A DNA stretch of 64,000 bases from Dehalococcoidia bacterium (GTDB lineage Bacteria; Chloroflexota; Dehalococcoidia; Lucifugimonadales; UBA2985), in assembly GCA_034421435.1 (NCBI GenBank), contig DAOUKJ010000040.1, positions 21,373 to 85,372 on the forward strand. Direction: 5' to 3'. The notes beneath the pieces are model-generated. The model saw nothing but the letters and a program-made list of their open reading frames with translations, was not told the DNA's origin and searched no databases. The position numbers were made by a program, and so were the translations under genes. Position 1 is the stretch's first letter. Every line of letters starts with the position of its first letter. Shown here one piece after another: positions 3,631 through 47,922 of this stretch.

Positions 3631-4986
3631 GTGCACATCACGGCCTCCGAGCCCAGGGTCCCGCCCAAGAACTACGGCTCACCGTACCTGCTGCTGGGCG
3701 GCTTTGCCCTCATGATCGCCGTGGGCACGGCCCTCCTGTTGATGCCGGTCGCCAACAATCAGGGAGAGGTCACTCCCTTCATGGACGCGCTCTTCACGGC
3801 GACCTCCGCCGTGACGGTTACGGGTCTGGTGGTCGTTGACACACCCACATACTGGAGCTTCACCGGGCAGCTGGTGATCATGGTGCTCGTGTTTGCCGGC
3901 GGGCTTGGCATAATGACCAGCGCCACGCTGTTTCTCCTGATCATCGGCCAGCGCATCACACTGGCCAACCGGCTGCTGATGAGGGAGAGCCTGGGCACAA
4001 ACCAGCTTGGCGGTCTGATAAGGCTTACAAGGCGCATTGTGCTGGTGGTGGTGGGTATACAGTTGGCGGGCTTTCTGGTGCTGATGGCAAGGCTCATAAG
4101 CGAGTATCCACTTGCCACGGCCGCGTGGCAATCGGCTTTTCATGCGGTGTCCGGGTTCAACAACGCGGGGTTCGCGATCTTTCCGGAGTCGGACAGCCTT
4201 GGCGCGTTTCGGAACGACTACACGGTGTTGGTCCCAATGACGCTGCTCATAATCCTTGGCACCGTAAGCTACACCGTGCTGTTGGACGTATTCGGCTATC
4301 GGAGGTTCAACCGATACACGCTCGATACCAAGCTGGTGGTGACGGTGACGGCGTTTCTGTTGCTCGTAGGCACGGCAGTCATCATGATTGGGGAGTACAG
4401 GAACGCGGAGACGCTGGGCCCGCTGTCGGTTGTGTCCAAGGCGTTCACGGCTTTCTTCCACTCCGCCAGCGGCCGCACCGCCGGGTTCACGACCGTCAGT
4501 TTCGAGAACATGGAGCTTCACAGCAGCTTCTTCATCACTGGACTGATGTTCATAGGCGGAGCGTCCGCTTCCACGGCAGGGGGCATCAAGGTGAACACAA
4601 TTGCCGTTCTGATGGCCGCGGTTCTCTCGTCTATTGCGGGCAGAAGCCATGCCACGGCGTTCGGCAGGGAGCTGCCGCAGACGCAGGTGTTCAGAGCCCT
4701 GACCGTCCTGGTGCTCGGAATCGTAATGGTATTCTCCGTGGCGTTCATCCTGACCATGAGCGAAGGGCTTCCGCTCAACCAGACACTCTTCGAGACGGTA
4801 TCCGCGTTCTCCACGGTGGGCCTGTCCACGGGCATAACCGACGAGCTTTCGCCTGTGGGGAGACTCATCATCATCCTGACGATGTACTTCGGTCGGATCG
4901 GGCCGCTCACACTTGCGCTAGTATTGGCGCAAAAGGAGCAGACGGCCACCTATCGCTACGCCGAGGAAAGGGTTAAAATAGGTTGA
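3631..4986 (+). CDS. ktrB: TrkH/KtrB-family K+ transporter membrane subunit
   Basis: The ORF is open from 3559. The GTG at 3631 follows GAGGAG, so the start is uncertain. It has repeated M1-P-M2 units with selectivity-filter-like TVTGL, SGFNNAG, GRTAGF and STVGLSTG. ktrA follows 4 nt downstream. Confidence 0.9.
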   Translation: MHITASEPRVPPKNYGSPYLLLGGFALMIAVGTALLLMPVANNQGEVTPFMDALFTATSAVTVTGLVVVDTPTYWSFTGQLVIMVLVFAGGLGIMTSATLFLLIIGQRITLANRLLMRESLGTNQLGGLIRLTRRIVLVVVGIQLAGFLVLMARLISEYPLATAAWQSAFHAVSGFNNAGFAIFPESDSLGAFRNDYTVLVPMTLLIILGTVSYTVLLDVFGYRRFNRYTLDTKLVVTVTAFLLLVGTAVIMIGEYRNAETLGPLSVVSKAFTAFFHSASGRTAGFTTVSFENMELHSSFFITGLMFIGGASASTAGGIKVNTIAVLMAAVLSSIAGRSHATAFGRELPQTQVFRALTVLVLGIVMVFSVAFILTMSEGLPLNQTLFETVSAFSTVGLSTGITDELSPVGRLIIILTMYFGRIGPLTLALVLAQKEQTATYRYAEERVKIG

Positions 4987-28538: not shown

Positions 28539-28636
28539 GGGGGCGGATGGGCTCTGGTGGGCTTCGCGGACTTCAAATCCGTTGGTGGGCGCCCTACGGT
28601 GTCCACGGGGGGTTCGACTCCCTCCCGCTCCCGCCA
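28539..28636 (+). tRNA. selC: tRNA-Sec (anticodon UCA), selC
   Basis: Hand-folded from the 98-nt sequence. The 8-bp acceptor is GGGGGCGG/CCGCTCCC (one G-U). The 6-bp D stem carries a TGGT loop. The anticodon loop is CT-TCA-AA (TCA at 28573-28575). The extra arm is 9 bp with a 4-nt loop. The 5-bp T stem has a TTCGACT loop. Discriminator G and CCA are encoded. The 8/5 acceptor/T geometry is the bacterial tRNA-Sec hallmark. Confidence 0.9.
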
Positions 28637-32649: not shown

Positions 32650-33132
32650 CTATGCTCTCAACTTGCCGGTAATCATCACCCCGTCGGTAACGCTATAGCC
32701 GACGCCTGTATCCACGTAGTGCTTATTCTCATAGCGCACAGCTGGTCTGAGCATCTGAGCGATTCTGTTGGCTGGATTAGAGGACTCCGTGTCGACGGGA
32801 ACACTCGCGGTATATGTCCGTCCCCAAACCTGCTCCGCGGCCTCCACAGTGGCCTCAACCGCCCGACCGCTCGTCACCGGAATCAGCGAAATGATGTCGT
32901 ATCCTTCCGCGTCCAATTGCACACAGGCGTTCGCGATATCTTGTGCTAGCTTCTTCCCTGCGGGGCGCTCTCCGGCTAGACCATAGACCGAGTCTGTTTT
33001 GCCACCGCGCTCCATCAAGTGGGAGTCCACGGCGATGTACCGGGTGACGTAGGGGGATTTCTTCTGGGGCTGGGGCGCAGCACCTGAACTGGCAGGCTTC
33101 GCCCCGGCCTTGCGGGAATTCTTCGTTGTCAT
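32650..33132 (-). CDS. Hypothetical protein (160 aa)
   Basis: The ATG at 33132 is 12 nt after AGGAGG and gives MTTKNSRKAGAKPASSG... The basic, disordered N-terminus is followed by a globular part with LDAEGYDIISLIPVTSG. The track's longer ORF (to 33441) has no RBS support. Confidence 0.6.
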   Translation of the reverse strand: MTTKNSRKAGAKPASSGAAPQPQKKSPYVTRYIAVDSHLMERGGKTDSVYGLAGERPAGKKLAQDIANACVQLDAEGYDIISLIPVTSGRAVEATVEAAEQVWGRTYTASVPVDTESSNPANRIAQMLRPAVRYENKHYVDTGVGYSVTDGVMITGKLRA

Positions 33133-33259
33133 ATGAGTGGCGATCCTCCTTGGTTGTATGCTGCCATCGATTCGTGCGTAACTCTTGCCGCCATCGATGT
33201 CCACACTAACGCCGCCAGTGAAGACGATGGTTGCGTTCCGCACGCAATAGCGCAGGAGC

Positions 33260-33289
33260 ATTCTAAACGAAGCCTTGGGCATTTTGCAA
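33260..33289 (-). promoter_or_regulatory. Sigma70-like promoter candidate (TTGCAA-18-TAGAAT) for the 160-aa gene
   Basis: Read on the minus strand: TTGCAA at 33289-33284 and TAGAAT at 33265-33260. Confidence 0.4.
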
Positions 33290-33311
33290 ATTGAACAAAT
33301 GACCATCGCCC

Positions 33312-33341
33312 TTGTGACTCTACACCGATTAGTGCTATAAT
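33312..33341 (+). promoter_or_regulatory. Sigma70-like promoter candidate for the pyr operon (TTGTGA-18-TATAAT)
   Basis: TTGTGA at 33312-33317 and TATAAT at 33336-33341, upstream of the PyrR-binding leader. Confidence 0.5.
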
Positions 33342-33390
33342 CGTTTGACTGAGCGGCTGCCCAAGGGCACGCCGCAGAAGCGCGGGAACC

Positions 33391-35568
<2,178 letters not shown>

Positions 35569-35572
<4 letters not shown>

Positions 35573-36891
35573 GCATGGTAATCAGAGGAGGCCGCATCAT
35601 CGACCCCGCCTCGGGCGTGGACATGGTGGGCGACGTTTTGATCGAAAACGGCGTCGTGGCATCGGTGGGGGCACAGGTTGAAGCGCCCCCCGGTGCTGAG
35701 CTGCTGGACGCATCGGGGCTGGTCGTGAGCCCCGGCTTCATCGATGTTCACGTTCATCTCCGCGTGCCCGGCGAGGAGCACAAGGAGACGATGGCCTCGG
35801 GTACGGCAGCCGCGGCCGCCGGAGGCTTTACGACTGTTTGCACCATGCCCAACACTCGCCCAGCGGTCGACCGCGCGGAGGTGGTGGAAGTGCTCCTGGA
35901 GCGCGCGCGGGACGAGGGCGTGGTCAGGGTGCTGCCGATTGCTTGCGTGACCAGGGACCGCGCGGGCGCAGAGCTGGTGGACGTTGAAGAGGTTGCCAGC
36001 GCCGGCGCAGTTGCAATCAGCGACGACGGCAGCCCGGTTGGCGACGCGGATGTGATGCGGGAGGCACTCGAGAAGGCCGGGCCTCTGGGGCTGCTCGTAA
36101 TCGACCACTGCGAAGACTCTGAAATCTCGGCCGACGGCGTGATGAACAGCGGCGCTGTGGCCGATAGCCTGGGACTCCAGGGCTGGCCGGCCCACGCGGA
36201 GGAAGACATGATCGCCCGCAATGCCGCGCTCGCGGAGGCAACCGGCGGTCGGGTCCACATGGCGCACGTCACGACAGCCGGAGGAGTGGAGCACATGCGG
36301 CGGGCCAAGGCGCGGGGTGCGCCGGTGACAGCGGAGGTCACTCCTCACCACCTGACCATCACGGAGGAGTGGGTGAGGGCGAAGGCGGGCCGCTACGGAC
36401 CATACGACACCAACGCGAAGGTAAATCCGCCACTCCGCACCCAGAAGGACGCGGACGCGCTCGTGGCCGCTCTTGCCGAGGGCATCATCGACTGCGTGGC
36501 GACTGACCACGCGCCACACAGCGCCGCGGACAAGGATTGCACTTTTGAAGAGGCGGCGTTCGGCATCAGCGGCCTGGAGGTTGCGCTCGGCTCGCTCATG
36601 AGCCTTGTCCACGATGGGCGACTGGAGCTGCCCACGCTGATAGAGCGACTGACCGCTGCGCCTGCAAGAGTCCTGGGCCGCCCGGACCTGTGCGCCGGCA
36701 CGCTGAAGCCGGGCAGTCCTGCTGACGTAACCATATTCGATCCGAACGCGGAGTGGGTGGTGCGCGCCGACCACATGCTATCGGGCGGCAAGAACACGCC
36801 GTTGGACGGCGACACGCTCAAGGGGCGCGTGGCGGCGACGCTAGTTGCCGGGCGCGTGGTGTACCGGAGTGAGGAGGCGCGGCTTGGCTAG
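35569..36891 (+). CDS. pyrC: Dihydroorotase
   Basis: 440 aa with SPGFIDVHVHLRVPG, a HMAHVTT-type segment and VATDHAPH. Confidence 0.95.
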
Positions 36892-37978
36892 GCGGGCAAT
36901 ACTGGCGCTGCAGGACGGCTCCTGGTACGAGGGCGAATCCTTTGGCGCGGAGGTGGACACCTACGGCGAGGTTGTCTTCAACACCAGCATGACCGGCTAC
37001 CAGGAGATTCTCACTGACCCATCCTACGCAGGCCAGATCGTGATTCCCACCTACCCCATAATCGGCAACTACGGCGTGAACGGCGAGCACATGGAGTCGC
37101 GCGAGATTCGCGTGGCGGGCTTCGCAGTGCGGGAGCACTGCCTCGATCCCAGCCACAACCTCTCGACCATGACGATTCACGACTACCTGGCGTCTCAGGG
37201 CATAGCGGGCATAGCGGGTATCGACACCCGCGCCGTCACGCGCAAGCTGCGATTTGCCGGCGTGATGATGGGCATGATCGCCGTCGGCACCTCGCCGGAG
37301 GAGGCGATGGAGCGGCTCCGCGACGCCCCGCGCTACGAGGACGTGGACTTTGTTGCCGGCGTGAGCGCGGAGGAGCCCTACGATTGGGACAATGCTTCCG
37401 GCGAGAGGAACGGGCCGCTTGTGCTGGTCAGCGACTACGGCCTCAAGTACAACATACTGCGCCTGTTACGCTCGCGCGGCTGCAGGGTGATGGCCATGCC
37501 GGTGGAGTCCAAGTCGTCGGACATCCTGGCCCTGAAGCCGGACGGCATCGTGTTATCGCCCGGGCCGGGTGATCCGGCATTGCTGGACTACGTCGTGGAG
37601 ACGGCAAGGGGCCTGATTGGCCGCGCGCCCATTCTTGGCATTTGCCTGGGTCATCAGGTGATCGGGCGGGCAATGGGAGGGAGCACGTTCAAGCTGAAGT
37701 TCGGTCACAGGGGCGGAAACCACCCCGTCCGCGATCTTGGGACCGGGCGAGTCCACATCACGGCGCAGAACCACGGCTACGCGGTTGACGGCGACAGCCT
37801 GCCGCCGGAGCTGGAGGTCAGCCACATCAACCTCAACGACGGAACGGTTGAGGGCATGCGTCACAGGGATCTGCCGGTGATGAGCATACAGTACCACTCG
37901 GAGGCGTCACCCGGCCCGCTGGACAACGTGTACCTGTTCGACCGATTCATGGAGATGGTGAAGGGAAACAGCTTGTGA
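36884..37978 (+). CDS. carA: Carbamoyl-phosphate synthase small (glutaminase) subunit
   Basis: The TTG at 36884 is 6 nt after GAGGAGG and gives (M)ARRAILALQDGSWYEGESFGA. It has the GATase triad motif GICLGHQ and IQYHSEASPGP. Confidence 0.93.
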   Translation: MARRAILALQDGSWYEGESFGAEVDTYGEVVFNTSMTGYQEILTDPSYAGQIVIPTYPIIGNYGVNGEHMESREIRVAGFAVREHCLDPSHNLSTMTIHDYLASQGIAGIAGIDTRAVTRKLRFAGVMMGMIAVGTSPEEAMERLRDAPRYEDVDFVAGVSAEEPYDWDNASGERNGPLVLVSDYGLKYNILRLLRSRGCRVMAMPVESKSSDILALKPDGIVLSPGPGDPALLDYVVETARGLIGRAPILGICLGHQVIGRAMGGSTFKLKFGHRGGNHPVRDLGTGRVHITAQNHGYAVDGDSLPPELEVSHINLNDGTVEGMRHRDLPVMSIQYHSEASPGPLDNVYLFDRFMEMVKGNSL

Positions 37979-38002
37979 TGATGGCAGTTGATGCGTTATA
38001 AT
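37973..38002 (+). promoter_or_regulatory. Sigma70-like promoter candidate for vapBC (TTGTGA-18-TATAAT)
   Basis: TTGTGA at 37973-37978 overlaps the carA stop; TATAAT is at 37997-38002. TTGATGC occurs at 37988 and again at 38026, a possible operator half-site pair. Confidence 0.4.
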
Positions 38003-38055
38003 GATGCTAACAATATGTGCCGAGTATTGATGCTTCAGAAAGGTGCGGTCCAGCC

Positions 38056-38295
38056 ATGAGAACGACACTAAATGTTGACGACGAGCTCCTGGAATCGATT
38101 GTCGAAGCCACCGGGGAGAAGAACAAGAGCAAGGCGGTGAACGCAGCTCTGAAGGAGTACATCCGGCGAAAGCACGTGCAGGAGTTGATCGATTCCTGGG
38201 GCAAAATCATCGTTGATGACTTCAGCGAAGAGTTTGACCGCTTGGACCTGGAGCGACAGGACTACCTTGAGTCACTGAGGAATGGCACTGCGTGA
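38056..38295 (+). CDS. vapB: Type II antitoxin, VapB family (DUF2191/Rv0623-like)
   Basis: The ATG at 38056 gives MRTTLNVDDELLESIVEATGEKNKSKAVNAALKEYIRR, the canonical N-terminus of this antitoxin family. Its stop overlaps the vapC GTG. Confidence 0.85.
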   Translation: MRTTLNVDDELLESIVEATGEKNKSKAVNAALKEYIRRKHVQELIDSWGKIIVDDFSEEFDRLDLERQDYLESLRNGTA

Positions 38296-38684
38296 CCATC
38301 CTGTTAGACTCATCCGTACTAATTCAGGCCCAGAGGCAACCTGACTCGGAGACGGCGACACACTTGGCCGCCCTACTGGCCTCCGGTGAGGCCGCGGTGA
38401 CCGGGCCCGTCGTCATGGAGTTTATTCGCGGAGCTCGCAATCTGGAGGAAGTCGACTTTCTGACCCGACGAGTGTTGTCCCTGGACTTCCTGACAATGGA
38501 TCAGGCGGTTTGGGTTCTTGCGGGGCGCTTGGGCAATCGGTTCCTTCGAACCGGCGCACGTCTGCCGAATGTGGATCTGAGCATAGCGGCTACAGCTATT
38601 CGACACGGCGTGCCCCTATACACTCTGGATCGCGCGTTCAGCACTGTACCTGAGCTATCGCTCTACAGTCCGACCGTGAATTGA
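38292..38684 (+). CDS. vapC: Type II toxin VapC (PIN-domain ribonuclease)
   Basis: 130 aa. PIN acidic residues are in context: [23 protein letters not shown] and YTLDRAF. Confidence 0.85.
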
Positions 38685-38704
38685 GCTCTCGGAACAAACT
38701 GCTT

Positions 38705-41700
38705 ATGACAACAAACGCTAATCTCTCCAAAGTCCTGGTCATCGGCTCCGGCCCTATCGTGATAGGGCAGGCGGCGGAGTTCGACTATGCGGGCACGCAG
38801 GCGTGCAAAGCCCTCCGTGAGGAGGGCGTAACCACGGTCCTCGTCAACTCCAATCCCGCAACCATCATGACCGACGAGGGCATCGCCGACATAGTCTACA
38901 TCGAGCCGCTCACGGTGGAGGTGATCTCCCGCATCATCGATCGCGAGCGGCCGCAGGGCATCCTGCCGACGCTCGGCGGTCAGACCGGCCTCAACCTCGC
39001 CGTTGAGCTCGCCGACGCGGGCGTGCTGGACCGGTTCGGCGTGCGCTTGCTTGGCACGCCGCTGGACACCATCCGCAAGGCGGAGGACCGCGAGCTGTTC
39101 CGCGAGCTGCTGGTGGAGATGGGCGAGCCAATCCCGCCAAGCGCCACCGCGGAGTCGATGGAAGAGGTTGCGCGCATCGCCGAGGAGATAGGGCTGCCAA
39201 TGGTGATTCGTCCGGCGTACACGCTCGGCGGCACGGGCGGTGGCATCGCAAACACTTGGGAGGAGCTGGAAGAAGTTGCGCAGGGAGGCCTGAGCGCCAG
39301 CCCCATCCACCAGATCCTGCTGGAACGCTCGCTGGCCGGCTGGAAAGAGCTGGAGTACGAGGTGATGCGTGACGGCGCCGACAACTGCATCACCATATGC
39401 AACATGGAGAACATGGACCCGATGGGCGTCCACACCGGCGACAGCATCGTGGTGGCGCCTAGCCAGACGCTCACCGACCGCGAGTACCAGATGCTGCGCT
39501 CCGCCAGCCTCCGCATCATCCGCGCTCTGGGAATAGAGGGCGGATGCAACGTGCAGTACGCGCTCCGTCCCAGCGATCTCGTAGCGGAGGCCATGCCGGG
39601 CGACTGGGTGGCGGACAGCTCCTACTACGTCATAGAGGTTAACCCCAGGGTGAGCCGCAGCTCCGCGCTTGCCAGCAAGGCCACCGGCTACCCCATCGCA
39701 CGCGTGGCCGCCAAGATTGCTGTGGGCAAGCGCCTGGACGAGATTCCGAACGCCGTCACCCAACGTACGCTCGCCGCATTCGAGCCTGCGCTGGACTACT
39801 GCGTGGTTAAGATACCGCGCTGGCCGTTCGACAAGTTTGCGGCCGGCAACCGCGTCATCGGCACGCAGATGAAGGCCACTGGCGAGGTCATGGCCATCGA
39901 CCGCTCATTCGAGGCGGCATTCCAGAAGGCGGTGCGCTCGCTGGAGATCGGCAACTTCACGATCATGTGGGAGGACACGGAGTGGCGCGACGACGATGGC
40001 GCGGGCCTGGACGCCCTTCCAATGCTCCCCACGGACCTGCGGCTCTGGGCGCTGATGGCGGCGCTCCGCCGCGGCATCACCACGGACGAAATCTCGCAGC
40101 GCACAGGCATTGATCCCTGGTTCCTGTACCGCTTCCGCAGGATCGTGGACATGGAGCGGCGGCTGCTCGAAGAAGACCTGACGCCGCGGCTGCTGTGGGA
40201 GGCCAAGCGCCTGGGCTTCTCGGACGCGCAGGTGGGCACGCTTGCCGACAGGCTGCCGGAGCAGGTGAGGAGCCTGCGCAGGGAGTGGGACGTCAGGCCG
40301 GTCTACAAGATGGTCGATACGTGCGCGGCCGAGTTCGAGGCGGCCACTCCATACTTCTACAGCACCTACGAGCAGGAGAACGAGGCACTGCCGCTGCCCG
40401 GCCCAAAGGCCGTGGTCGTGGGCAGCGGCCCCATTCGCATCGGGCAAGGCATCGAGTTCGACTACTGCTCAGTTCACGCCGCGTGGGCCCTTCAGGCGGA
40501 GGGCGTTCGCAGCATCATGGCCAACTCCAACCCGGAGACCGTGTCCACCGACTTCGACACGAGCGACCGGCTCTACTTCGAGCCTCTGGACGAGGAGAGC
40601 ATGCTGGACATCCTGGAGAACGAGTTTGACGAGCAGTCGGACTCGCCGGAGTACCCGGCCAGCATGGTGCAGTTCGGCGGCCAGACCGCCATCAACCTGT
40701 CGCAGGCGCTGGACCGGGAGGGCATGCCCATCCTCGGCTCCACGGCAGACTCCATAGACATAGCGTCGGACAGGGGGCGCTTCGGTGACTTTCTGTCGCG
40801 GCTGGGCATACCTCTGCCTCCGGGCGCGGCGGTGACCTCGCTGGAGGAAGCTATGAAGGTGGCTGAGGGTACGGGCTACCCGGTGCTGGTGCGACCCAGC
40901 TACGTGCTCGGCGGCCGGGCGATGGAGATTGTGCAGAACACCACAGAGCTCATCCGGTACGTCACAGCCGCCGTCGACATGGGAACGCAGCATCCGGTAC
41001 TCATCGACAAGTACCTGGGCGGCCGCGAGGTTGAGGTCGACGCCATTTGCGACGGCGAGCGCGTGCTCATCCCAGGCATCATGGAGCACGTGGAGCGCGC
41101 CGGCGTCCACAGCGGCGATTCGATGGCGATCTACCCCGGCGTCACCCTCACCGACGACGAGGTGGATGTACTAGTGCAATACACCACACAGATCGGGCTG
41201 GCGCTGCAGGTGAAGGGTCTGATGAACATCCAGTACGTGCTGGTGGGCGGCAGCCCCTATCGCAGCCCCAGCGTCCTGCGCGACGACAGCGTGCAGTCGA
41301 CGGCGTACGTGCTGGAGGTGAACCCGCGGGCCAGCCGCACCGTGCCGTTCCTGTCCAAGGTGACGGGCGTGCCGATGGTGCAGCTCGCCACCAGGGTGAT
41401 GCTGGGCCGCACGCTCGCCGATATGGGCTACGAAGCGGGACTGTGGAAGCGGAGCAAGCTGGTTGCTGTCAAGGCGCCCGTGTTTTCGATGTCCAAGCTG
41501 GCGGGCGTCGACACCTACCTGGGGCCGGAGATGAAGTCGACGGGCGAGGTCATGGGCATCGATAGTGACTTTCAGGGAGCGGTCGCCAAGGCGCTGCTGG
41601 CGGGAGGGCTGTCGTTTCGCTCGGGCTCGTCGGTGCTGCTGAGCATCGCAGACCGGGACAAGGTGGAGTCGCTGCCGCTGGTGCGGGCGCTGGTGGAGGC

Positions 41701-42028
41701 GGGATGCAAGCTGTACGCCACGGAGGGCACGGCGGGCTTGGTGCAGGGCCTGGGCCTGCCGGTGACGATGATTACGAAGAAGCTGAGCGAAGGCCACCCC
41801 AACGTGATGGACATCATGATGGACGGCACGGTGCAGGCGGTGGTGAACACCGTGACGGGCGAGCGCGCCAACCTGCAGGACGGCTTCGAGATACGCAGGG
41901 CGGCGGTGGAGCGCCGGATCCCGTGCTTCACGTCGCTGGACACGGCGCGTGCGGCGGTCGAGAGTCTGCTGCACGGCGCGGCGGGCTACAGCATCCGCCG
42001 CCGCGACGAGTATTTGGAGGAGGGGTAG
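38705..42028 (+). CDS. carB: Carbamoyl-phosphate synthase large subunit
   Basis: The ATG at 38705 gives [33 protein letters not shown]. It has two ATP-grasp halves and an MGS-like C-terminus. The track start at 38681 overlaps vapC and is less likely. Confidence 0.97.
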
Positions 42029-42049
42029 GGGGCGCGCGTCCACCTTCCG

Positions 42050-42133
42050 GCCCGCTCACGCCCTACGGCAAGCTCTGGGTGAGCGGGCTAGATTTACACC
42101 GCTCATGGTGAGCCTGTCGAACCATATGAGCGG
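42050..42133. repeat. Pair of REP-like hairpins downstream of carB
   Basis: Hairpin 1 is GCCCGCTCAC (42050-42059) / GTGAGCGGGC (42079-42088). Hairpin 2 is CCGCTCAT (42099-42106) / ATGAGCGG (42126-42133). Their loops and arms share sequence with 2429-2455 and 45786-45818. Confidence 0.65.
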
Positions 42134-42184
42134 AAATGGCGGCTTGCGGTGGCTTGACGCCTGGCGATGGTGTAAACTCCACCC

Positions 42185-45100
42185 ATGCCTAGCTATCCTC
42201 ACATAGAGCAGTATCGCGCCCAGCTTCAACGATTGATTGAGTTGGGCGGATCAGACAACGAGTCAAGCATTCGCCGCGCCTTCGCCAACTGCCTTGACGC
42301 CTACTGCCGCGACCACAGGGAGAAACTTGCGCTGGTGGACGAGCTTGGCGCAGCCCTGGGGAACCGGCCGGACGGCACTGTCAAGGACACCCTGCGCATG
42401 AACCGCGGCTACTGGGAGGCCAAGGACACCCACGACGACCTGGACACCGAGATTCAGCGCAAATTCAATCGCGGCTACCCGCGGGACAACATCATCTTTG
42501 AGGACTCCCAGACCGCTGTCCTGATCCAGAACAGGGAAGAGGCAATGCGGGTCGACATGACCCGCCCCGATGAGTTGCACAGGCTCATCCGTGCCTTCCT
42601 GGACTATGAGCTGCCGGAGATAGAGGAGTTCCGGCAGGCGCAGCAGCAGTTCAAGGCTGATCTGCCAACCGTCATCGCCAATCTGCGGGAGGCTGTCGAG
42701 GCGGCCGAGGCCGGCAACCCTGAGTACCAAGAGGCCGCTGGCGCCTTCCTGGAGCTTTGCAGACAGAGCATTGGGCCCAACCTGACCGCCGCCGACGTCC
42801 GCGAGATGCTGCTCCAGCACATCCTCACTCAGGACATCTTCCTGCGGGTGTTCGGTGAGGCCCAGTTCCATCGTGAGAACAACATCGCCCGCCAACTGTC
42901 GGAACTGGAGGCAACCTTCTTCACCCGCGATGTGCGCCGAGAGGAGATCGAGCGGTTGCGCGCCTACTACGGCGCTATTGGACGCGCCGCCGACGAGATA
43001 GCCGACCATGCCGAGAAGCAGCAGTTCCTCAAGGCCATCTACGAGGACTTCTACAAGGCTTATAACCCCGCCGCCGCCGACCGCCTGGGTGTGGTATACA
43101 CGCCCAACGAGATAGTGGACTTCATCATCCGCGGAGCGGACCACCTGCTTCAGAAGCACTTCGGTCGTAGTCTCGGAGACCGGAACGTCCAGATTCTGGA
43201 TCCTGCCACGGGCACGGGCACCTTTGTTACCAACCTCATCGGCTACCTGGCCGACAGCGGAGAGCCGGACGCCCTGGAACGCCTAGAGCACAAGTATCTG
43301 CACGAGATACACGCCAATGAGGTTGCCATACTGCCGTACTACATCGCGAACCTGAACATAGAGTACACCTACAGGGAGAAGACGGGGCGTTACCGAGAGT
43401 TCCCCAACCTGGTATTCGTGGATACGCTGGATAACATGGACTGGCAGGGGGTGACTGGTAGCGCTGTGGAGCGGCAGGGTTCATTCAACCTCGGTGGCCT
43501 TTCCACGGAGAACTGGATGCGGGTGCAGCTGCAAAACGAAAAGCCAATTAGCGTGATCATAGGCAACCCGCCCTACAACGCCAACCAGCAGAACGAGAAT
43601 GAGAACAACAAGAATCGCGAGTACCCGGAGATAGACCGGCGAATCAGCGACACCTACGTTGCATCCAGCGGGGCGCAGAAGACTAAGCAGTACGATATGT
43701 ACAAAAGGTTCATACGCTGGGCCTCCGACCGGCTGGCAGACGACGGAATCATCGCGTTCATCACAAACCGCGCCTACTTGGAAGCCCGTCAAGATGACGG
43801 CTTTCGACGGGTCGCGGCGGAGGAGTTTACTGACATATACCTCTTGGATTTAGGATCTGACGTGCGCCGAAACCCCAAAATCTCCGGCACCACACACAAC
43901 GTCTTCGGAATTCAGACCGGCGTGGCCATAGGTTTCTTTGTGCGGGAAAAGTCCAAGCTGGGTGAGTGCTCAATTCACTACGCGAGCCGTGAAGACGCCG
44001 AGCCTGCAAAGGACAAGCTGGCCTATCTGCGCGGGGCCGCACTGGGTGAGCTTGCCTTTGAGGAGATCACGCCCGACAAGGGAGGGAACTGGCTCAACCA
44101 GTCCAATAGTGACTTCGACAAGTTGCTGCCTCTAGCCAACAGAGGAACCAAATTTGCCAAGTTGGTCAGTGATGAGAGAGCAATCTTCAAGCGATATTCA
44201 ATGGGCGTTGTGACAAACCGTGACGACTGGACCTATGACTTTGACGCAGAACAGCTGGGCACGAAAGTGCGCGCAATAGTTGAGGCTTATGAGAAAAGCC
44301 GCTCAAAGTTTGGGGGTAAGAAATTCGACTCCGCCGATCTAGGTACTGAAATCAAGTGGACGCGTGATCTGAAGAATCAACTTCGTTTAGACAAACCTAA
44401 TGCCTTCAAGAGTACAAATATTCGGTCAACGCACTTTCGGCCGTTTGTCAGCAAGGAATTGTATTTCGACCAGAGCCTAAACGAAATGCAATATCAGCTT
44501 CCTGAGATTTTTCCGACGGGCCGCATCGGTGAGAACAAGGCAATCTGCTTCTGCGTGAACGGCAGATTCTTCTATGTGTTGGCGACTGATAGGGTTATCG
44601 ACCTGCACTTCACGGGAGATACCCAATGCCTGCCTCTGTACCGATACAGCTCGAACGGCGGGCGCTCTAGGAATATAACCACTTGGGGCATCAATCGCGT
44701 CAACGACCACTACAAGAAGGAGTGGGGCGAGCACTTCGATAAGGTGTACCCCAAGGGCATCACCGCGGAGCACATCTTCGCCTACACCTATGCCGTGCTC
44801 CACGATCCGGTCTACCGCTACGACTACGCCATAGACCTGACGCGTGAGTTCCCACGCCTGCCCCTCTACCACGACTTCGATACATGGGCGCGCATGGGGC
44901 AGCAGCTTCTCGACCTGCACATAGGCTTCGAGTCCGCTGAGCCGTTCCCGCTGGAGCGGATTGACATGCCTGGAATCGCAAAGCGCGTCATTCTGAGGCC
45001 GGACAAGGAGCGCGGCAGAATCGTGCTGGACGACAAGACCACGCTGACAGGCGTGCCCGCGGACGCCTGGGGCTACCGGCTGGGCAGCCGCTCGGCACTG

Positions 45101-45394
45101 GAGTGGGTGCTGGACCAGTACAAGGAGCGGAAGCCTCGCGACCCCACCATTGCGGAGAAATTCAACACATACCGCTTCGCCGACTACAAGGAGCGGGTGA
45201 TAGATCTGCTGAGGCGCGTGTGCACGGTCAGCGTCAAGACTATGGAGATCGTGGACGGCATGGCGTACTGGGACGACGGCTACCTTGTGGTGTACGGAGA
45301 CCGCGACAAGCACGAGTGGTCGATGATGGGGATGTCTCAATGGGTCAAGGATGCTGAGGATCCGGAGTGGGAGGCGGCGTGGTTGGAGACGTAG
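42185..45394 (+). CDS. Single-chain N6-adenine DNA methyltransferase / putative restriction-modification enzyme (type IIG or type ISP-like, lacking a helicase module)
   Basis: 1069 aa. The N-terminus has RPDGTVKDTLRMNRGYWEAKD (PD...EAK, PD-(D/E)XK-like). MTase motif I is ILDPATGTGTF and motif IV is VIIGNPPYN. The long C-terminal region (…FAYTYAVLHDPVYRYDYAIDLTREFPRLP…WGYRLGSRSALEWVLDQY…) resembles, from memory, the target-recognition region of LlaGI-type ISP enzymes. Confidence 0.7.
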   Translation: MPSYPHIEQYRAQLQRLIELGGSDNESSIRRAFANCLDAYCRDHREKLALVDELGAALGNRPDGTVKDTLRMNRGYWEAKDTHDDLDTEIQRKFNRGYPRDNIIFEDSQTAVLIQNREEAMRVDMTRPDELHRLIRAFLDYELPEIEEFRQAQQQFKADLPTVIANLREAVEAAEAGNPEYQEAAGAFLELCRQSIGPNLTAADVREMLLQHILTQDIFLRVFGEAQFHRENNIARQLSELEATFFTRDVRREEIERLRAYYGAIGRAADEIADHAEKQQFLKAIYEDFYKAYNPAAADRLGVVYTPNEIVDFIIRGADHLLQKHFGRSLGDRNVQILDPATGTGTFVTNLIGYLADSGEPDALERLEHKYLHEIHANEVAILPYYIANLNIEYTYREKTGRYREFPNLVFVDTLDNMDWQGVTGSAVERQGSFNLGGLSTENWMRVQLQNEKPISVIIGNPPYNANQQNENENNKNREYPEIDRRISDTYVASSGAQKTKQYDMYKRFIRWASDRLADDGIIAFITNRAYLEARQDDGFRRVAAEEFTDIYLLDLGSDVRRNPKISGTTHNVFGIQTGVAIGFFVREKSKLGECSIHYASREDAEPAKDKLAYLRGAALGELAFEEITPDKGGNWLNQSNSDFDKLLPLANRGTKFAKLVSDERAIFKRYSMGVVTNRDDWTYDFDAEQLGTKVRAIVEAYEKSRSKFGGKKFDSADLGTEIKWTRDLKNQLRLDKPNAFKSTNIRSTHFRPFVSKELYFDQSLNEMQYQLPEIFPTGRIGENKAICFCVNGRFFYVLATDRVIDLHFTGDTQCLPLYRYSSNGGRSRNITTWGINRVNDHYKKEWGEHFDKVYPKGITAEHIFAYTYAVLHDPVYRYDYAIDLTREFPRLPLYHDFDTWARMGQQLLDLHIGFESAEPFPLERIDMPGIAKRVILRPDKERGRIVLDDKTTLTGVPADAWGYRLGSRSALEWVLDQYKERKPRDPTIAEKFNTYRFADYKERVIDLLRRVCTVSVKTMEIVDGMAYWDDGYLVVYGDRDKHEWSMMGMSQWVKDAEDPEWEAAWLET

Positions 45395-45854: not shown

Positions 45855-47174
45855 CTAATCGGGGTACTTGCTCCAGGTGGTCCAGCACGAATCTGTTGGG
45901 GTGTAGGCACCCGATACGGCAATCTCGGCTTTGTTATTCACTTGACGATCGCCTGCCTGTCCCCTTATCTGCTGGATGCTATCGTTATGCAGCCAGACAC
46001 GCGTGCGTCCGCTCCCTGTGTTGCCGCCGCTGGATGAGAAGGGATGGGGACCCTCAACGGTAATGTCCCCAGCCCAAAAGTCGTGCGCCTCGCCCCGCTT
46101 TACACCGTGCCACTGGAAGCCCTCCAGGTAGTACTGCGTAAAGAGCGTGAACCCGTCGTACGGATTGAACACGTCTATGTCGTTGGCAGTGATGCCGGAT
46201 CCGTCGAATACCTTGCGCGCTATGGCATCCGTGGAAGCCTCTACCTCGTCCAGTGTTTGGATATTGCTTCGCACCTTGGGGACATTCGAAGCGTGGTTGA
46301 GAATGTAGACCGGAGGCTGCTTCATGTCCTTCGCTCGATCTGCAGTGGTGAAGACATAGGCGAACGACACCTGGATGGGCATGTCGGCATCGTAGAGGTT
46401 CATGGGTTTGGCCAGCCATCTCGCAGCCAGGTAGTCCTCAACAGTGATCGCCTCGGGCCGATGCTGGTAGAAGAATCCATCCGGATTCATCAGTCCGTTC
46501 CTTCGCTGGTTCACGATGAAAGGGGCCATCCTGTCATGGCTGGAGCCGTACTTACGGCAGTACTTGTTGAGCAGGTATCCGTAAGTTGCGCCGGCGGCGC
46601 TCCAACCCCAGGGACTTGTCCACTGGGCACCGCCGGGTGCGGTATCCAATGCGTTAGCGCCCCACTGCGAGTATCGACCTGCGAGGTTATTGAGTGCCCG
46701 AACAACCAGAACGGTATTTGCTTCTCCATCACCCACTATCTGGGCGGCGACGACGATAGCTTTCGACATGCACGTCGGAGCGTGCATGGCAAAATTGACG
46801 TTGTTCAACTCAGGCATGTTCTTGACAAGCCAGTCGGCGCTCATCGAGCTGATTCCGTCGTTGGGATTATCGGTGGGGATGTACGTTCTGGCGAAATCTT
46901 CCGGAATGGGTCTCGGCGCCCAGGGCTCACCTGTGCAATGCGGAACGACAACAAGGCCGTCGATCGCGTCCGGGGATATCCCCGCATCCTCCAGGGCTTT
47001 GTTGACCGCTATCAGGGTGTTCGCGCCCACGCTGGTTTCGGGCCTTTCGTCCCAGCGCCGGGCTGTCGGAGAGCACCCCAGTCCCGCCACCGCCACCTTC
47101 CCCCTGTGCTCCCATAGTCCCAGGTTCTCTCTCTCCCTGTAAAGCGAAAGCGGAGCCAACGGAGTTGGTGCCAT
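45855..47174 (-). CDS. Thiolase-like (SCP-x / lipid-transfer type) protein
   Basis: The ATG at 47174 follows GAGAGGAG. 439 aa with VAVAGLGCSPTARRW and ALEDAGISPDAIDGLVV. It is paired with an upstream DUF35 OB-fold gene, the usual partner of this thiolase subfamily. Confidence 0.75.
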   Translation of the reverse strand: MAPTPLAPLSLYRERENLGLWEHRGKVAVAGLGCSPTARRWDERPETSVGANTLIAVNKALEDAGISPDAIDGLVVVPHCTGEPWAPRPIPEDFARTYIPTDNPNDGISSMSADWLVKNMPELNNVNFAMHAPTCMSKAIVVAAQIVGDGEANTVLVVRALNNLAGRYSQWGANALDTAPGGAQWTSPWGWSAAGATYGYLLNKYCRKYGSSHDRMAPFIVNQRRNGLMNPDGFFYQHRPEAITVEDYLAARWLAKPMNLYDADMPIQVSFAYVFTTADRAKDMKQPPVYILNHASNVPKVRSNIQTLDEVEASTDAIARKVFDGSGITANDIDVFNPYDGFTLFTQYYLEGFQWHGVKRGEAHDFWAGDITVEGPHPFSSSGGNTGSGRTRVWLHNDSIQQIRGQAGDRQVNNKAEIAVSGAYTPTDSCWTTWSKYPD

Positions 47175-47215
47175 TTGCTTACTCCTCTCTATTCGTTGGC
47201 AAGTCGCAGTGATGG

Positions 47216-47638
47216 CTAGTCTGCCTGGTGCACAACTCGCCATTCAGGAATCAGTTGACCGGGCGCCGCCCCCTCCACGAATATGACCTCCACAGAGGCT
47301 CCCACCGGGACCTCATCTACCGGCGTCCCAGGAAGGTTGGAGAAGAACTGGATGTCAGGGTCTTCTTCGATCTGAATGATGGCGACGTTGTAGGGCTGGT
47401 CTTCCACATACAATCTGAGGCGTGAGTCATGTATCACTACGTAGTCATCTATGGTGCCCCTCCCGCTGACTTCACTCCACTCCAGATTCTCGGCGGAGTC
47501 ACATTGGTAGCAGATTGATTCCGGTGGGAATTGCCATCGATCGCAAGGGGGGCATCTCTGGACTATTAGTCGCCGTTCGTTCGCAGCCTCCCAGAAGGGC
47601 TTGCTCACCTCATCGGGAATTGGTACGGGCCTTGGCAT
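47216..47638 (-). CDS. Zn-ribbon OB-fold protein (DUF35 family)
   Basis: The ATG at 47638 follows GAGGAGG and gives MPRPVPIPDEVSKPFWEAANERRLIVQRCPPCDRWQFPPESICYQCDS (rubredoxin-like CxxC...CxxC), followed by an OB-fold part. Confidence 0.8.
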   Translation of the reverse strand: MPRPVPIPDEVSKPFWEAANERRLIVQRCPPCDRWQFPPESICYQCDSAENLEWSEVSGRGTIDDYVVIHDSRLRLYVEDQPYNVAIIQIEEDPDIQFFSNLPGTPVDEVPVGASVEVIFVEGAAPGQLIPEWRVVHQAD

Positions 47639-47922
47639 GGGAACCTCCTCTTCGATCCAGAATCCCTGCAAGCTCCCTGGGGCTCCTGAGCTACAAAGAA
47701 CGTCATCATGATACCAGAGATTCCTGGATTTGCCAGCCATCTGTATGGGACCAGGGCATATTGCAAAGGACTTCCTTGCGATCTCCGGCGTTCGCCTCCC
47801 CATCGCGGCGCGACGGGCTTCAGTGTCCGCCTCCGTGAGGAGTGCCTGGGCGAGGGGTAGGGCGAGGGGGCGGCCTGCGACGGCCACTGGTAGCCCTGGA
47901 TTGACAATAACGCAGGCCTTTT

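Follow-up and report, generated by a model that had tools for sequence, protein, structure and literature searches.

Why should the two subunit genes of carbamoyl-phosphate synthase, carA and carB, be held apart by a toxin-antitoxin (TA) gene pair? The question is posed by a 64,000-nucleotide stretch of DNA from a Dehalococcoidia bacterium (contig DAOUKJ010000040.1; hereafter the window), in which a cassette of vapB and vapC stands between carA and carB in a pyrimidine (pyr) operon. An initial annotation, made from the sequence alone, read this arrangement as a precise insertion. We arrive at a different answer, to which we give a probability of about 0.6: the cassette would be a bona fide TA or conflict module of the VapBC type, maintained by selection in a hotspot inside a PyrR-controlled operon, and its link to carB would be transcriptional.

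The cassette fills the interval between the carA stop codon at 37978 and the carB start codon at 38705, and all four genes lie on the + strand. The small-subunit gene, carA, was recognised as a 377-amino-acid open reading frame (ORF) at 36845-37978 (TIGR01368, 464 bits; PF00988 and PF00117). Its 3' end reads ...AAC AGC TTG TGA, and its real start is probably a few codons 3' of 36845, where the gene would overlap the last part of pyrC, as it does in the related locus L083 (L numbers denote individual loci throughout). The antitoxin gene vapB (38056-38295, 79 amino acids) matches PF09957 VapB_antitoxin with E = 3e-12 and 46.6 bits against a cut-off of 23.4; the ORF lister places its start at a GTG at 38017, whereas homologues and a conserved ribosome-binding site favour the ATG at 38056. 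The PIN toxin gene vapC (38292-38684, 130 amino acids) matches PF01850 with E = 1.9e-12 and 48.3 bits against a cut-off of 23.6. Its GTG start lies over the vapB stop, so that the two genes overlap by 4 nt (GTGA). From the vapC stop codon (38682-38684), a spacer of 20 nt (38685-38704) with no promoter-like or terminator-like site leads to the ATG of carB (38705-42028, 1107 amino acids; NF003671, 1477 bits; Pfam CPSase_L domains), the large-subunit gene, which is co-oriented with the cassette. This spacer is also short, about 20-40 nt, in L082, L083, L095 and L099.

On this anatomy the initial annotation was accurate throughout: its coordinates for the cassette, the overlap of vapB with vapC, the 20 nt before carB and the lower G+C content were all recovered from the sequence and the ORFs. 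G+C is 0.53 in vapB and 0.59 in vapC as against 0.64 in carA and 0.66 in carB, and it falls to 0.52-0.59 across 37850-38900 from 0.64-0.69 in the flanks. The arrangement was also seen in an independent assembly, Logan contig L001, which is 100% identical to the window over the stretch that it covers (carA and vapB).

The site is occupied in the same way well beyond this one genome. A search for VapC homologues returned 78 proteins at 54-98% identity and nothing weaker, and genomic contexts were fetched for P0002, P0004, P0009, P0041, P0072, P0071, P0038, P0069, P0064, P0026 and P0076 as well as for two JGI loci. Together with the window this gave 14 loci (L082-L086, L090-L092, L095, L096 and L099-L101 being the others) that represent 14 distinct VapC clusters with 54-84% identity. 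In all 14, vapB-vapC lies between carA and carB, accompanied by no more than a single additional gene, namely a GDPD phosphodiesterase preceding or following vapBC, a HAD hydrolase following it, or a 119-amino-acid GIY-YIG-like ORF. Relative to the window, the host carA is 62-97% and carB 70-96% identical across the vapBC-bearing loci, and the association therefore spans deep divergence.

The VapC proteins concerned form a discrete orthologous group, since among 1.84 billion representatives clustered at 50% identity they constitute a single cluster (208.8 bits), separated by 87 bits from the next PIN protein (121.6 bits). A scan of JGI metagenomes with the VapC profile yielded four loci, two of which (L091 and L092) show the same context; the other two, L093 and L094, consist of short contigs, encode distantly related PINs (31-33%) and give no information on context. 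In a GTDB locus, L002, the site is likewise filled by a vapB (47%) and a PIN gene (34%), and the upstream motif recurs there. The PIN protein of L002 belongs to one of the outgroup PIN clusters closest to this group, and the locus hints at a still older association of vapBC with the site. Taken together, these comparisons indicate that vapBC is a long-standing resident of a fixed site rather than a recent insertion.

What does the cassette encode? The PF01850 match of VapC covers model positions 1-119 of 120, and the protein also hits the NCBIfam equivalog NF047959 TA_toxin_VapC (E = 9e-19), although its 67.8 bits stay under the 80-bit cut-off. The acidic residues D6, E43, D95 and D113 are present in the window protein and align with the equivalent region of VapC11 of Mycobacterium tuberculosis. 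Across 55 aligned homologues, E43 never varies, conservation of D95 and D113 is 90% or more, and position 6 holds either D or E. VapC11 (PDB 6a7v) is also the best match of the VapC profile in the PDB (E = 4.4e-12). An AF2 model of VapC (pLDDT 87.5) has the alternating beta/alpha order of the PIN fold, and all of its top PDB matches in Foldseek are PIN toxins of the VapC/FitB type, with VapC11 ranking first at 28% identity.

VapB matches the VapB11 chain of 6a7v weakly (E = 0.75) over the N-terminal MRT.L.IDDEL region. Its N-terminal DNA-binding region contains the sequence MRTTLNVD..., and residues 1-60 are highly conserved among homologues, as opposed to a more variable C-terminal tail that is presumably the toxin-binding part. 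The pair thus has the features of a type II VapBC module: a PIN toxin of about 130 amino acids with its acidic residues, and an overlapping upstream gene for a DNA-binding antitoxin. The overlap is kept in most loci, while L101 has an 8-nt gap instead.

Both genes are full-length in all loci and evolve under purifying selection, which would lend only indirect support to VapC being a toxic ribonuclease that VapB neutralises. Pairwise ratios of nonsynonymous to synonymous divergence (dN/dS) were 0.03-0.12 for vapB and 0.08-0.18 for vapC, many of the underlying dS values being saturated, and fall in the same range as those of carA and carB (0.04-0.15 for close pairs). Here we disregarded the carA values for window/L084 and L085/L096, where dN exceeded 2 despite 74-90% identity, as artefacts of codon mapping. 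Judged from sequence, the module is a canonical and intact VapBC system that is probably active. The initial annotation had allowed that the insertion might prove to be an ancient, fixed feature with degraded catalytic residues. Ancient and fixed it is; degraded it is not, for the acidic residues are kept and dN/dS is around 0.1.

If the site is old, the allele that fills it may have changed. Between the window and L083, carA is 97% and carB 96% identical, as compared with 86% for vapB and 73% for vapC. The disparity is similar for the window and L101 (carA 89%, carB 96%, vapB 76%, vapC 58%), for L086 and L090 (91%, 95%, 72% and 55% in the same order) and for L092 and L095 (95%, 93%, 77% and 67%). 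One pair, L090 and L091, shows the opposite trend, with a cassette (vapB 87%, vapC 90%) closer than its flank (carA 81%; carB not available). Nucleotide identity in sliding windows falls sharply just 5' of the vapB start, in the carA-vapB spacer (in L092/L095, in the spacer after the GDPD gene), and is back up at the start of the gene that follows the cassette. Synonymous divergence is much higher in the cassette than in the flanks. Neighbour-joining trees of carA+carB and of vapB+vapC are incongruent: the L101 host is sister to the window, and the L101 vapBC groups with that of the distant L090.

Deeply diverged vapBC genes flanked by almost identical copies of carA and carB, the sharp edges of the divergent stretch and the conflict between the trees are most simply explained if lineages have swapped old vapBC alleles, with the conserved flanks serving for homologous recombination. 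The recent event at this locus may then have been the replacement of one allele by another, not an insertion.

How might the cassette be tied to carB? The operon promoter (33312-33341, + strand; TTGTGA-18-TATAAT, TG-extended) was located by promoter scan and from the sequence, and the scan reports it twice, with alternative -35 hexamers. It is followed by a PyrR-binding leader at 33385-33502 (+ strand; Rfam RF00515, 60.8 bits against a gathering score of 54) and, within it, by a terminator hairpin, the attenuator, that the scan lists as a terminator-like site at 33468-33495 (+ strand). The genes then run pyrR, pyrB, pyrC, carA, vapB, vapC, carB. This is the layout of a PyrR-attenuated pyrimidine operon, with leader RNA and terminator ahead of pyrR, pyrB, pyrC, carA and carB, and the leader puts the whole pyrR-pyrB-pyrC-carA-(vapBC)-carB unit under pyrimidine control.

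A second, internal promoter of the sigma-70 type is predicted for vapB at 37973-38002 (+ strand). As the initial annotation had described, it reads TTGTGA-18-TATAAT and overlaps the end of carA, whose last sense codon and stop codon (TTG TGA) form the -35 hexamer. Hexamers and spacing are identical to those of the operon promoter, which has the TG extension in addition. In the 9.6 kb from 33000 to 42600, these are the only two locations with promoter-like sites on the + strand.

Three direct WTGATGC repeats on the + strand, at 37988-37994, 38001-38007 (overlapping the -10 box) and 38027-38033, make up a putative operator for VapB or VapBC. Repeats of this kind had been proposed as worth a search, and they are present: WTGATGC has 26 matches in the window, and its sole cluster consists of the three ahead of vapB. 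When the 120 nt 5' of vapB were aligned from 13 loci, TGATG[CT] proved 53-fold enriched in the 90 nt 5' of vapB compared with the remainder of these loci; its positions, -67, -54, -41 and -28, are conserved and give a 13-nt period. Ten of 14 loci have a -10-like hexamer at -59/-58 relative to the vapB ATG, directly fused to GATGC (TA[TAC]AATGATGC) in 8 of those 10; a -35-like hexamer stands 16-18 nt further upstream in 7 of 14 (at 18 nt in six), with at least 9/12 matches. The ribosome-binding site of vapB (38038-38046, + strand, GAAAGGTGC) is likewise retained, as (G/A)AA(A)GGTGC or AGAGGTGC in 9 of 14 loci and as a shorter GAAAGTGC in two more (L092 and L095). The TGATGC array would look like what is expected of an autoregulatory operator for an array of antitoxin dimers.

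The scan of the window gave no terminator-like site between carA and carB, and from vapB through to carB successive genes either overlap or follow one another closely in all loci. Given the 20-nt spacer and the lack of a terminator between vapC and carB, carB is plausibly transcribed from both the PyrR-controlled operon promoter and the vapB promoter, much as the initial annotation had suggested when it proposed read-through or the vapB promoter as sources of carB expression. A functional tie of vapBC to carB expression is, on this arrangement, plausible. Control of the whole operon by VapB was considered and rejected: the operon promoter has no TGATGC cluster, and therefore nothing points to such a role.

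From this anatomy a working model can be drawn. VapB would bind the TGATGC direct repeats over the -10 box and repress its own promoter, alone or as VapBC, and it would neutralise VapC. Free VapC would be a Mg2+-dependent PIN endoribonuclease, closest to VapC11, that arrests translation. Read-through from the operon promoter and initiation at the cassette's own promoter would both contribute to vapBC expression, and both promoters would serve carB across the terminator-free 20 nt after vapC. The site would be inherited, with the cassette as an exchangeable allele replaced homologously through its conserved flanks. In our view, what connects the cassette with carbamoyl-phosphate synthesis is mainly its position and its transcription rather than biochemistry.

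Several points weigh against this picture of a long-resident, selectively maintained TA module. The vapBC-bearing relatives were sampled by way of VapC itself, and L003, which is nested in the vapBC clade, has an empty carA-carB junction of 106 bp. The comparison with empty sites that the initial annotation had called for thus turned up this one junction, all contexts of VapC homologues being occupied. The Foldseek TM-scores of VapC are modest (0.41-0.47, with a reported root-mean-square deviation of about 12 A), and for this reason we let the classification of VapC rest on sequence profiles. Promoter and operator are read from consensus and conservation. Faster evolution and weaker codon bias could partly account for the divergence of the cassette in place of replacement; dS is saturated in many pairs. 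One family kept at one site over such depth is unusual for a merely selfish or defensive module. Finally, conservation across the clade is higher for VapB (64-94%) than for VapC (54-84%), although antitoxins more often evolve faster than their toxins. This last point hints at a constrained role of VapB beyond neutralisation, for example in regulating transcription into carB.

The most serious competitor takes up that hint and casts the module as a co-opted regulator. VapB or VapBC would govern a promoter inside the operon, independent of PyrR, from which carB, and in some relatives further pyr genes downstream, would be supplied while the leader is attenuated; VapC would link the node to translation arrest, and the module would be kept for a need of the host rather than by addiction. 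A PyrR-independent supply of carB would matter since arginine synthesis, too, draws on carbamoyl phosphate, and dual control is normally needed where a single carbamoyl-phosphate synthase serves both pathways (review PMC6245113). Retention of one family at one site across hosts with carA only 62% identical fits this proposal, as do the conserved promoter and operator architecture, the junctions that are tight or overlapping as far as carB in all loci, and the conservation of VapB relative to VapC; in distant pairs VapB even exceeds carA (76% against 63% for the window and L086).

Nevertheless, we regard co-option as unlikely. Sister lineages hold unrelated cargo or nothing in the same gap, and carB expression is therefore not generally dependent on VapB; L003 lacks the cassette altogether. 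An internal promoter would yield carB without carA, TGATGC clusters are missing from the operon promoter and from the rest of the window, and the rapid turnover of VapC alleles is more typical of conflict systems. In a broader, similarly improbable form of the idea, VapBC would have been recruited as a control element of the pyrimidine/arginine node, with VapB gating a PyrR-independent carB promoter and VapC arresting translation when the node fails. In Dehalococcoidia, the pyr operon junctions would then be dedicated docking sites for TA and defence cassettes that are exchanged through flanking core genes, possibly with the aid of GIY-YIG nucleases.

We surveyed 32 Chloroflexota species representatives, mostly Dehalococcoidia metagenome-assembled genomes (MAGs), with carA and carB on one contig. 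The two genes are at least 470 bp apart in 21 of the 32, at most 110 bp apart in nine and about 200 bp apart in two. The premise of the initial annotation that carA and carB normally adjoin is therefore not supported by these representatives; outside Chloroflexota, the genes are no more than 86 bp apart in 10 of 15 loci that have both. The species representatives closest by carA are Dehalococcoidia/Chloroflexota MAGs at 60-66% amino acid identity, and most hold other cargo than vapBC.

This cargo comprises a conserved 138-amino-acid ORF without a Pfam match (8 loci); a GNAT acetyltransferase with or without a HEPN/nucleotidyltransferase (MNT) pair; HEPN_AbiU2; Hypoth_Ymh; DUF559; a TIR protein of the CAP12/Pycsar type together with GIY-YIG; and a phosphoenolpyruvate carboxylase of the archaeal type, the last recognised from its sequence by eye and not by domain search. 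In a neighbour-joining tree of carA+carB, the vapBC lineages form one clade, sister to the clade with the 138-amino-acid ORF, and a second vapBC group, with HAD, is placed elsewhere. On this sequence evidence, the carA-carB junction of the class can be described as a general landing place for small TA and defence-type genes.

Some of these occupants deserve a separate description. The ORF of about 138 amino acids (MSSFSMVLLEEGV...LPGVLPTV) occurs in L007, L012, L013, L015, L016, L021 (7206-7622), L022 and L031, is 39-45% identical between loci and fills the space between carA and carB in Dehalococcoidia MAGs of a sister clade. HEPN/MNT pairs lie in the gap on the - strand in L023 (7640-8331) and L035 (7014-7702), both with a GNAT acetyltransferase, and an Armatimonadota MAG (L045, 7098-9001, + strand) has three tandem pairs of HEPN plus a small partner between carA and carB. 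In L006, a GIY-YIG nuclease gene (3717-4207) stands right before carB, the first 20 or so codons of which (MTTKPSKVLIIGSGPIIIGQ) are duplicated upstream of the nuclease gene; this looks like an insertion of the homing type. A weak GIY-YIG/DUF7508 ORF is found between vapC and carB in L101 (6427-6786). GIY-YIG nucleases could drive turnover at the junction. Relatives also carry TA-type genes at other junctions of the operon: RelB-like plus PIN or a Fic protein between pyrC and carA, and DUF4258 with an MqsA-like antitoxin after carB. Instances of TA-type genes at such other pyr junctions are L095 3091-3783, L099 2287-3426, L096 10594-11135 and L085 497-718.

Might the cassette, then, be an abortive-infection or anti-phage islet, with the carA-carB gap as a defence hotspot in which phage pressure retains vapBC and explains the diversity of its alleles? 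HEPN_AbiU2, Hypoth_Ymh, the CAP12/Pycsar-type TIR protein and the HEPN/MNT pairs in the same gap of other lineages agree with this proposal, as do a Type ISP-like methyltransferase gene after carB and the strong allelic diversity between conserved flanks. Phage protection by this or a close VapBC would, however, be deduced from context, and where cargo is defensive, one family usually replaces another, whereas a single family has been retained here. We consider a specifically anti-phage function quite improbable; it overlaps our explanation of a selectively maintained TA module and does not exclude it.

The proposal that a mobile vapBC was acquired recently by horizontal transfer and inserted exactly between carA and carB fares far worse. 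The dip in G+C, which would mark a foreign origin, and the promoter carried by the cassette gave the idea its appeal. The site, however, is occupied by vapBC in every context of a VapC homologue, down to 62% carA identity, and for this reason we rejected the scenario, which is now very improbable. Low G+C (0.47-0.59) is equally found in the cassette of every vapBC relative and is therefore a stable property of these genes rather than a sign of recent arrival. Nor did we find direct or inverted repeats at the cassette ends, such as target-site duplications or terminal inverted repeats, or an integrase, transposase or recombinase gene adjoining it in the ORF list. That the ORFs are decaying relics, surviving since deletion would harm carA/carB expression, is barely credible: imprecise deletions between two essential genes would presumably be lethal, but dN/dS is 0.03-0.18 in both genes, the ORFs are full-length in all loci, the catalytic residues are conserved, and the ribosome-binding site and 4-nt overlap are kept in most loci.

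Viewed as a selectively maintained TA module, the cassette resembles several known systems and departs from each of them. VapBC11 (Rv1560/Rv1561, PDB 6a7v) is the best solved relative of both window proteins and has the same organisation, a small antitoxin gene overlapping a PIN toxin gene of about 130 codons. VapC11 cleaves tRNA, and the vapBC loci of M. tuberculosis are scattered and not known to be embedded in a biosynthetic operon. The window VapC is only 28% identical to it, and in the window clade the antitoxin is the more conserved partner. The PIN toxin fold family is shared, according to Foldseek, with Rickettsia felis VapBC2 bound to DNA (3zvk), Neisseria FitAB bound to DNA (2bsq) and VapBC of Shigella and Salmonella. 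Like these canonical VapBC/FitAB systems, ours would have an antitoxin with an N-terminal DNA-binding domain and repeats over the promoter, as expected for autoregulation. Several canonical systems use inverted repeats; the putative operator here consists of two to four direct TGATGC repeats with a 13-nt period, and VapB belongs to the PF09957 family.

Escherichia coli mazEF, a chromosomal TA module downstream of relA, is co-transcribed with a housekeeping gene and lies at the end of its unit. Both mazEF and the vapBC described here are type II modules that share transcription with a core gene and are vertically inherited within a lineage. Unlike mazEF, vapBC separates the genes for two subunits of a single enzyme, preceding that for the larger subunit, and is conserved across hosts with carA only about 62-74% identical. 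A variable carA-carB insert of hundreds to thousands of base pairs, with both genes functional, has reportedly been seen in Neisseria gonorrhoeae; it is said to consist of repeat elements rather than a TA or defence cassette, and to have no conserved protein family tied to the site. With hotspots and defence islets flanked by core genes, the junction has in common that lineages differ in the small TA or defence genes held at one position and that alleles are seemingly exchanged through the flanks. It differs from them in lying inside an operon, between subunit genes, in holding only 0.5-2.5 kb, and in that one clade keeps a single family.

VapBC itself is a known type of system, and it is the conserved context and the hotspot that are of interest. 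The role of chromosomal TA modules is debated; most are patchy and mobile, so that selection on them is hard to see. Here, a vapBC family is bound to one site in an essential biosynthetic operon in every case examined, and purifying selection, an antitoxin better conserved than its toxin, and alleles shuffled between nearly identical flanks form an unusual combination. In full-text literature searches we found neither a TA module described between carA and carB nor one described within a pyrimidine operon. The locus offers a natural system for separating three reasons why TA modules persist, namely addiction, defence and recruitment as a regulator. Annotators should note that in Dehalococcoidia carA is frequently not contiguous with carB, and that low G+C is an unreliable sign of recent acquisition for cassettes of this kind.

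The remaining genes of the operon and its surroundings complete the description. The pyrR ORF (33420-34091, + strand) matches PF00156. The pyrB ORF (33464-35572, + strand; pyrB portion from about 34124) has an OTCace match and a C-terminal PyrI_C domain, a zinc-binding regulatory domain, and is thus a pyrB-pyrI_C fusion, also present in L084, L086 and L101; the Asp/Orn-binding domain gave only a partial match in this aspartate carbamoyltransferase ORF. The pyrC ORF (35569-36891, + strand) was taken from the ORF list, the dihydroorotase domains being recorded for the syntenic genes of relatives only. Downstream of carB, a + strand gene at 42185-45394 encodes the Type ISP-like protein of 1069 amino acids, with coupler, N6-methyltransferase/Eco57I and Type_ISP_C specificity domains and without the nuclease-helicase N-terminus; G+C falls to 0.46 within this gene, around 44150-44600. 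A thiolase-like/ChsH2-like pair (45855-47887, - strand) lies beyond it in the window and directly after carB in L082 and L101. Upstream of the operon, at 28539-28636 (+ strand), is a tRNA-Sec gene with anticodon TCA, which implies selenoprotein synthesis in this organism.

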